From positions 18,983 through 82,982 of the forward strand of contig JAPLXQ010000006.1 in NCBI GenBank assembly GCA_026395995.1: a DNA stretch of 64,000 nt, written 5' to 3'. Shown here piece after piece: positions 41,808 to 42,783 of this stretch (positions are counted from its first letter, which is position 1; each line of letters starts with the position of its first letter). The translations under genes and the position numbers were made by a program. The notes under the pieces were generated by a model. It saw only the letters and a program-made list of their open reading frames with translations, was not told the origin of the DNA and ran no database searches. The DNA comes from Candidatus Nomurabacteria bacterium. GTDB lineage: Bacteria > Patescibacteriota > Minisyncoccia > Phycocordibacterales > UBA9973.

Positions 41808-42783
41808 TTAGCTTACACTTGCCATACCTGCACTGATCTCGGAAATTTCTTGGGTGATGCCGGCTTGGCGGGCTTTGTTGAATACGAGGGTGAGGTTGTC
41901 GATCATTTCTCCTGCCGCCTCGCTCGCATTCTTCATGGCTACCATTCGGGCCGACTGTTCCGAAGCTCCGGATTCGAGGAGCATTTGATATATCTGCATC
42001 CTGATCAATTTCTCGGCTAACATTTCTATCAATTTGTTCGCATCGCCTTCGATGAGGTATGGGATTGAGTTCCCCTCCCCCTTCGCTAAGGGGGAGGTTG
42101 GGAGGGGGTGCTGATTCTTCACCCCACCTCGGTCCTCCCCTTGGCTAAGAGGAGGAGGAACTAGCCCATCAATCATATCTTTCATTTCTTGTCTCGATAT
42201 CGGTAATAGATTTCTCACATTCGGCTTCTGAGTGAGTGCCGAGACGAAGTCGGTATAAACGACGAAGACTTCTTTGTATGTTCCCTTTTTGTATTCATTT
42301 AAAATCAGAGCTGAAATAGGGTTTACATTTTGTATTGAAATATTTACTGGCAACGATGATATTCTGTCCGATTTTTCGCATCGCATGGTCGCCCTTTTTG
42401 CCGATACTTATTATGTCAAAGGTGCCCTTTGACATATCTGTTTGATTTTGTAGACGTCCGACGTCTACAGATTTAATCAATTGCATCGCTTTTTTGATAG
42501 CTTGAGCATTGTAGCCACCGCAGAGTGAGCCGTTTGAAGTGATGAGGACGATCAAAGTCTTGCCTTCTTTTGGAGATTCAAAAAATACATTTTTCACTTC
42601 ATCCAATTTCCCCGACAAAGAAGTCAAAAGTTCCCAAGAGTATCCTGCATATGAACGCGAAGCGAGTGTCGTCGCCACCGCACGACGCATCTTCGAAGCC
42701 GCCACCAGCTCCATCGCCTTGGTGATCTTTTTTGTATTCTTGATACTCTTTATTCGGTTTTTGATTTCTTTTGTTGATGCCAT
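41808..42783 (-). pseudogene. atpG: F-type ATP synthase gamma subunit (atpG), split into two overlapping ORFs (42295..42783 and 41808..42386) by a +1 frameshift at the A4 run near 42328-42331. The downstream half also carries a ~90-bp GC-rich palindromic insertion. This is either a sequencing indel or a genuinely interrupted gene
   Basis: The N-terminal ORF carries the gamma N-terminus (MASTKEIKNRIKSIKNTKKITKAMELVAASKMRRA). The C-terminal ORF carries the gamma C-terminus ([44 protein letters not shown]). Hand translation shows that deleting one A from acaaaatg restores ...[15 protein letters not shown].... Confidence 0.8.
42072..42158. repeat. Composite GC-rich palindromic repeat inserted in frame in atpG: two head-to-head copies of a ~40-bp unit (CCCCTCCCCCTTCGCTAAGGGGGAGGTTGGGAGGGGGTGC and its approximate reverse complement CACCCCACCTCGGTCCTCCCCTTGGCTAAGAGGAGGAGG)
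   Basis: Read directly. Each unit is an 8-bp GC stem with an 8-nt loop plus a TTGGGAGGGGGTGC tail. Translated on the minus strand it yields the Pro/Gly-rich linker [32 protein letters not shown] inside gamma. Confidence 0.7.

Follow-up and report, generated by a model that had tools for sequence, protein, structure and literature searches.

Why does atpG, the gene for the F1 gamma subunit, carry a GC-rich palindromic segment that is read in frame in a candidate-phylum bacterium? The question is raised by a stretch of 64,000 nucleotides from Candidatus Nomurabacteria bacterium (assembly GCA_026395995.1, contig JAPLXQ010000006.1, positions 18,983 to 82,982 of the forward strand). We call this whole stretch the window and use its coordinates throughout; its GC content is ~33% and its GatB protein is 93% identical to proteins labelled Candidatus Nomurabacteria. 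A first-pass annotation of the sequence had compared the atpG segment with the Rickettsia palindromic elements. On the evidence presented here, the segment is very probably an inverted pair of intrastrand triplex motif repeats of the BoxC/PIT type, a dispersed family of non-coding DNA, rather than a protein module or a Rickettsia palindromic element. BoxC/PIT repeats have been known in Escherichia coli for about thirty years, and we know of no established function or copying mechanism for them. What looks new is that a BoxC-type family is present in Patescibacteria and that its members reside, translated in frame, within housekeeping genes.

An inverted pair of units within atpG

The GC-rich composite spans 93 nt at 42069-42161 on the minus strand, inside the AT-rich atpG (41808-42783, minus strand; overlapping open reading frames (ORFs) at 42295-42783 and 41808-42386), and begins and ends with GTTCC...GGAAC. 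The segment had originally been placed at 42072-42158, and these limits are now refined; the two inverted unit copies reported there were recovered as a pair of triplex-type (BoxC-like) units of 37 nt each, translated within the gene. Unit A, on the plus strand at 42074-42110, reads CCTCCCCCTT-CGCT-AAGGGGGAGG-TTG-GGAGGGGGTG and is composed of a pyrimidine (Y) arm at 42074-42083, a loop at 42084-42087, a purine (R) arm at 42088-42097, the second loop TTG at 42098-42100 and a reverse-Hoogsteen, or mirror, arm at 42101-42110. It is type-A-like, with 10/10 Watson-Crick pairs and 9/10 positions that follow the mirror rule. Unit A', on the minus strand at 42120-42156, reads TCCTCCTCTT-AGCC-AAGGGGAGGA-CCG-AGGTGGGGTG and is type-B-like, its second loop being CCG; both its Watson-Crick and its mirror score are 9/10. 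A 9-nt spacer, CTGATTCTT, lies between the two at 42111-42119. The G-rich third arms face inward, and the earlier label 'head-to-head' is therefore only loosely right. The hairpin attributed to each unit is present, but it is not the whole unit: the extra TTGGGAGGGGGTGC forms a third arm, a mirror of the purine arm. ViennaRNA, which models Watson-Crick pairs alone, folds the composite into three hairpins and a closing outer stem, at -53.8 kcal/mol as RNA (z -3.2) and -26.5 kcal/mol as DNA (z -3.3).

Where does the insert fall in the protein? Both halves of atpG match the Pfam family ATP-synt, and in alignments to PDB structures the insert falls between gamma residues ~198 and 204, immediately ahead of the C-terminal helix. 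Across the 93 nt a single frame of the six is free of stops, and it is the frame in use, which yields a Pro/Gly-rich loop; the single units of the window leave two to five of the six frames open. In an AlphaFold2 model of the AtpG of a sister genome (P0123), residues 213-246, between a helix at 199-209 and the C-terminal helix starting at 251, have a predicted local distance difference test score below 50 and no secondary structure, and the insert loop of that protein is predicted to be disordered. The statement that the insertion preserves the reading frame holds locally; over its full length, however, atpG is broken into the two overlapping ORFs by a 14-nt gap at 42353|42354 (region 42342-42366), ~190 nt upstream of the element, in comparison with loci L015, from a sister genome (CCGCATTTACCGAC in L015), and L017. 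A more distant atpG, in locus L016, has a different out-of-frame gap of ~19 nt (about 285-411 of that locus), which is 20-30 nt from the position of the window gap; both gaps are situated ~190-230 nt upstream of the repeat pair. They may be real deletions near an unstable repeat, marks of pseudogenes or assembly errors.

A third arm that mirrors the purine arm

On its G-rich strand every unit has the order pyrimidine arm, short loop, complementary purine arm, 3-nt loop and third arm, and the third arm is the purine arm reversed, with G opposite G and either A or T opposite A. All five units of the window can be parsed in this way, with stems of 9-10 nt and at most one mismatch per stem, loops of 4-5 and 3 nt, a second loop of TTG, TTA or CCG, and third arms that agree at 8-9 of 9-10 positions. 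All five also fall within the search settings of ITxF, which specify stems of 6-15 nt, at most one mismatch and loops of 1-6 nt (PMC4666352). The arms change together: the purine arm GGGGGAGG of units A and B is accompanied by the tail GGAGGGGG, the purine arm GGGGAGGG of unit C by the tail GGGAGGGG.

The same dependence was found on a larger scale in metagenomes, using a scan pattern that specified the hairpin alone and gave 125 matches in at least 120 stretches. Among the matches listed, the arms were perfectly complementary in 110 of 125, and 69 of these 110 perfect hairpins (63%) had a perfect 8/8 mirror arm no more than 12 nt away; the control values were 1.9% with an arm taken from another copy and 9% under a direct-repeat rule. 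Six arm types, each with its own matching tail, are present in this same set of listed matches, in which T frequently stands at A positions of the third arm (GGGTGAGG 28 times, GGGAGAGG 5 times). A mirror arm is unable to form Watson-Crick pairs. In the antiparallel purine-motif triple helix the triplet code consists of G.G:C with either A.A:T or T.A:T, and the third arm both obeys this code and covaries with the purine arm. Since the tail is the mirror and not the complement of the purine arm, only parallel/reverse-Hoogsteen pairing explains the covariation. Judged from their sequences, the window units have the architecture of a class II purine-motif intrastrand triplex, and they are predicted to fold as such. 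Other structures were considered and rejected: a G-quadruplex or an alternative Watson-Crick pairing of the G-rich tail, because the tail mirrors the purine arm, and a triplex of the pyrimidine motif formed by the C-rich strand, because T is frequent in the third arm, which puts A on the C-rich strand.

Other copies in the window

The first-pass annotation had listed further copies at 52348, 54709 and 16100, and all of them stand. Unit B (52349-52385, minus strand) lies in frame in a gene for an FAD-linked oxidase (51384-53141, minus strand); the 52-nt block around it, 52344-52395, is 94% identical to the corresponding block of unit A. Unit C (54710-54746, plus strand) is in frame in gatB (54364-55842, minus strand), where it is read as APLPNPPLGEGEG. 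Unit D (16105-16139, minus strand) is an intergenic T-type unit in the spacer of a corA-like and an rplU-like gene, with the sequence CCCTCTCCT-TTATA-AGGAGAGGG-TTA-GAGTGAGGT, 9/9 Watson-Crick pairs and 8/9 positions that follow the mirror rule. Can such motifs arise by chance? The hairpin core was matched nowhere in 100 shuffles, even with up to three mismatches, and perfect-stem triplex-type motifs number four in the window as against none in 100 dinucleotide shuffles; a chance origin is excluded. Four of the five units are located within ORFs that are supported by Pfam or PDB matches. These genic units occur in both orientations relative to their genes and in differing frames, and they encode differing peptides; therefore the constraint acts on the DNA and not on the protein.

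Relation to BoxC, PIT and TMECO elements

To which family do the units belong? The repeat described first as BoxC in E. coli was renamed PIT element and then TMECO (Holder et al. 2015; PMC4666352). The TMECO consensus is CCCTCNCCC N3-6 GGGNGAGGG N3 GGGNGAGGG, a class II purine-motif intrastrand triplex, and circular dichroism and nuclear magnetic resonance have demonstrated a purine-motif triple helix on single-stranded BoxC oligonucleotides in vitro (PMC4666352). Strain MG1655 has 23 copies, every one intergenic, of two types whose second loop is TTA (A) or CCG (B); five inverted pairs each join one TTA-loop and one CCG-loop unit (PMC4666352). In total 3610 copies were counted over 262 proteobacterial genomes, and other G/C-rich motifs were reported in cyanobacteria and Thermus (PMC4666352). 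Loci occupied by TMECO were more rearranged among strains than control loci (PMC4666352).

The atpG composite repeats this design. Its second loops, TTG and CCG, reproduce the inverted pairing of a TT-type with a CCG unit, its layout is that of the inverted pair in the E. coli mrcB-hrpB spacer, and 13 inverted TT-type/CCG pairs were found among the loci examined. The window units share with BoxC/PIT/TMECO the order of pyrimidine arm, purine arm and reverse-Hoogsteen arm, G/C-rich stems of 9-10 nt, a first loop of 4-5 nt and a second of 3 nt that is TT-type or CCG, and mixed-type inverted pairs. They also have in common a dispersal in highly similar copies, the absence of a transposase match nearby (here among the window ORFs scanned) and an unusual variability of occupied loci among relatives. 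The differences concern sequence and setting: the window units, unlike TMECO, have CCTCCCCC, CCCTCCCC or CCCTCTCC as arms, with TT/AA closing pairs as an extension, and, unlike BoxC of E. coli, the repeats reside in a 33% GC patescibacterial host, where four of the five units are translated in frame instead of being intergenic.

Insertion history of the occupied genes

Comparisons with relatives show how variable these sites are. In gatB, the two closest orthologues (92-93% identical; GCA_026395955.1 and GCA_026396065.1) are devoid of unit C, 103 of 121 aligned sequences (the query and 120 homologues) have exactly 19 residues in the segment, and similar Pro-Leu...Gly-Glu peptides occupy the site in four relatives that are less closely related. 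At one and the same codon of the oxidase gene, the window and two sister genomes have three different inserts, one of which is a T-type unit of this repeat family. The atpG pair of the window is only 62% identical (57/92) to that of the sister genome L015, while the flanks are 90-93% identical and third codon positions 87%. Compared with L016, an independent assembly (GCA_040384245.1) with a much more distant atpG, the relation is reversed: the element is 93.5% identical (87/93) and downstream third codon positions 59% (51/87). A pair is also present at the same site in L198, whose AtpG is 60% identical, and a degenerate pair in the L199 lineage, and AtpG relatives that have no insert retain a native linker of 17 residues. 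Because the atpG and oxidase sites are occupied in close relatives by different family members, the history of the element is decoupled from that of the gene: either the same loops have been hit repeatedly, or resident copies have been overwritten by other members of the family. The proposal that the segments are lineage-specific insertions is supported for GatB by its closest orthologues; for AtpG and the oxidase, the sites do vary among relatives, but close relatives have different family members there and not empty sites.

Both atpG and the oxidase gene have a second variable site. At 42449-42469 atpG contains another in-frame palindrome, TGTAGACGTCGGACGTCTACA, read as SVDVGRLQ, where L015 has a T-type triplex unit and L017 nothing. 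At 52758-52820 the oxidase gene of the window contains 63 inserted nt, which include a perfect palindrome of 13 bp (AAGGCAAGACCTT...AAGGTCTTGCCTT); the site is empty in L001 and in L002 is filled by a 75-nt insert of another repeat family (peptide KNSSPFALGDIGQGVDNS), which also occurs at the other oxidase site in L001.

A number of observations weigh against the assignment to the BoxC/PIT family or the reading of the segments as translated insertions. Nothing in the window matches the strict TMECO consensus, which is matched in the E. coli locus L197 and at two further loci; the units of the window are thus related to TMECO and not TMECO proper. Their putative membership is founded on architecture and on a T-type unit that is nearly identical, and not on agreement with the published pattern. 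In E. coli itself the triplex was undetected by dimethyl sulphate footprinting in vivo (PMC4666352). Copy numbers refer to one 64-kb window and a few loci. A transposase-like Pfam match is lacking among the window ORFs scanned, and target-site duplications were found neither at gatB nor at the oxidase and atpG sites. A clean empty site was not encountered either: in gatB ~45 nt replace 12 nt, and in atpG the native 17-residue linker is missing instead of being interrupted. Finally, atpG is frameshifted both in the window and in L016, so the claim of in-frame residence, like that of tolerance in an essential gene, is firmest for gatB, the oxidase gene and the intact sister atpG that encodes P0123.

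Distribution outside the window

The family is not specific to the candidate phyla radiation (CPR): members were found in contigs of 29-70% GC, in bins of Gammaproteobacteria and Chloroflexia and in E. coli. A genome scan with a narrow pattern gave 12 matches across 185,579 species. Inverted doublets are present in several genomes (the window, L008, L011, L013, L015, L016 and L198). In low-GC contigs sampled more widely, 13 of 67 copies lie in ORFs and the majority are intergenic, at an ORF coverage of ~73%; at the Nomurabacteria loci roughly 11 of 17 copies are in ORFs, including an RNase H gene. Our literature search found no paper on such repeats in CPR/Patescibacteria or as a translated insert, which agrees with the view of the first-pass annotation that they had not been described in CPR-type genomes.

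Three individual occurrences are worth recording. The RNase H gene (Pfam RNase_H, 2.8e-37) of the sister genome JAPLXO01 contains, in frame, a C-type unit (L006, 1014-1048) that is almost identical to unit A of the window. A metagenome contig of 41% GC (L145, 2180-3117) has a tandem array with a period of ~100 nt, whose triplex-type units TCCCCCTT/AAGGGGGA/AGGGGGAT are readable on both strands. The tail-plus-hairpin motif is also present in 58 IMG/VR viral contigs (L019-L076), most of them of 55-70% GC. For TMECO, no association with phages or plasmids was reported in the E. coli study (PMC4666352).

Alternative explanations

Could the pair instead be a mobile doublet that is moved by an enzyme? 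In this scenario it would be a REP/REPIN-type doublet mobilized by a RAYT, an IS200/IS605-like Y1 transposase, or a miniature inverted-repeat transposable element (MITE) moved by its parent insertion sequence. Inverted doublets recur across several genomes, copies in two unrelated genes are 94% identical and the pair has the terminal inverted GTTCC/GGAAC; like REP, BIME and REPIN sequences, the units are of 20-40 nt, single or in inverted doublets, and numerous. REP sequences, however, are extragenic and associated with a Y1 transposase, and a GTAG or CGTC tag marks the two REP super-families (PMC3733652). Inspection of the five window units by eye found no such tag, the window ORFs scanned gave neither a Y1 nor a DDE transposase match, and the mirror third arm is foreign to REPs. 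The MITEs that occur in bacterial genes (ERIC, Correia, BOX, Coxiella QMITE1) are likewise small, non-autonomous and capable of in-frame fusions, but their terminal inverted repeats match a parent insertion sequence and they are bordered by target-site duplications; here neither a parent nor a duplication was seen, native bases being replaced with no flanking direct repeat. Near the E. coli copies, too, remnants of transposases or integrases were not found (PMC4666352). We regard an origin of this kind as unlikely.

A role at the level of the mRNA, in which a hairpin cluster within the operon slows ribosomes or protects the transcript, appears slightly less probable again. It would make use of the strong RNA fold computed for the pair. 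The genic copies are nonetheless found in both orientations relative to the gene, and the frequent T at A positions of the third arm fits a purine-motif DNA triplex, which has been reported not to form in RNA (PMC4666352). PIT elements had neither promoter nor terminator activity in E. coli (PMC4666352). No Rfam family was matched at gathering thresholds by the window and 20 loci, and an E-value scan of 41950-42280 returned chance matches to microRNA hairpins only.

The comparison with Rickettsia palindromic elements, according to which the segment would be a member or close analogue of a class of selfish palindromes specialized for ORFs and endowed with a conserved peptide of their own, captured the behaviour of the repeat and not its family. 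A palindromic fold is present, and GC-rich repeated palindromes dispersed in unrelated housekeeping genes survive there in frame, add a surface peptide and are absent from close orthologues. The Rickettsia elements, by contrast, are described as ~150 bp long, each with a conserved, family-specific peptide (PMC10969869), and their description sets them apart by host and by the lack of a three-arm mirror. Here a 37-nt unit forms a 93-nt pair, unit peptides differ with frame and orientation, the units obey the three-arm mirror rule of BoxC, and most copies of the wider low-GC sample are intergenic. We find this identity very improbable.

It is equally hard to credit that the gamma subunit acquired the Pro/Gly-rich loop as an adaptation, in the manner of the regulatory insert of the chloroplast gamma. 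The site is indeed a variable linker, across which chloroplast gamma aligns without a large gap (query 38-188 with 6fkf_g 208-360), and many Patescibacteria have extra residues there, the AtpG segment being at least 34 residues long in 33 of 121 sequences (median 28). Yet unrelated genes and a spacer contain the same DNA unit, the peptide varies among close relatives while the DNA architecture is kept, and the prediction for the loop is disorder. That the pair is an artefact of assembly or binning has a negligible probability: the 14-nt frameshifting gap casts doubt on the local assembly quality, but the same pair is at the same site in the independent assembly L016, related pairs are present in three others (L015, L198 and L199), and the units lie within long ORFs with conserved flanks.

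The GC clusters of yeast mitochondria provide a further parallel. They too are short GC-rich palindromes in a very AT-rich genome, with in-frame insertions in var1, a role as hot spots of recombination and gene conversion, and fast merging and shuffling (PMC8811140). Unlike the repeats studied here, they belong to organelle genomes, have terminal AG/TAG repeats that are taken as target duplications and have no described triplex-type third arm, and in one yeast the inserts are bypassed in translation and not translated (PMC8811140).

A model for BoxC-type repeats in genes

What are the implications of a BoxC-type pair in atpG? We interpret the element as selfish or neutral DNA that would be copied by a process using the folded single strand. 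Selection would then filter the copies, which may persist in genes only where their length, frame and position are harmless, and the ribosome would read straight through them; the recurrent occupancy of the same loops would, under this assumption, largely reflect selection. Most likely the element has no function for the gamma subunit itself. In our view the most likely route of copying would be one at the DNA level, for example polymerase stalling with copy-choice, or gene conversion between copies; a trans-acting enzyme would be the alternative. Polymerase stops at the motif and local instability are both on record in the literature.

A bolder idea, which we put forward tentatively and consider possible but doubtful, is that the BoxC-type repeats of Patescibacteria are still being actively copied and preferentially re-enter or overwrite occupied sites through structure-stimulated copy-choice or gene conversion, in this way colonizing permissive loops of essential proteins. 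Should this be true, two lineages would owe the out-of-frame gaps near their atpG pairs to the same structure-induced instability acting within a gene, and the lineage would offer a natural system for learning how BoxC elements move, a question that has been open since the 1990s. Independently of this idea, filled, empty and replaced sites can be compared, and they form raw material from which the movement of the repeats may be reconstructed; the hosts of translated units are gatB, the FAD-linked oxidase gene, atpG and, in a sister genome, the RNase H gene. Pro/Gly-rich 'lineage-specific loops' in proteins of candidate phyla can be repeat DNA that is read through, and not adaptations. The repeats may also mark hot spots of local deletion.

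Neighbouring features of the window

Three features of the surrounding DNA complete the description. The region 40001-46000, which holds the ATP synthase operon, has a GC content of 0.39-0.46, as against 0.27-0.38 elsewhere in the window. In the atpD-atpC spacer, at 40316-40355, there is another GC-rich palindrome, GCCCGCCCGC...GGCGGGCGGG, of a non-triplex type. At 920-3019 an ORF of 699 aa for a TraG/TrwB-like type IV coupling protein stands among housekeeping genes, beside dnaK and dnaJ.

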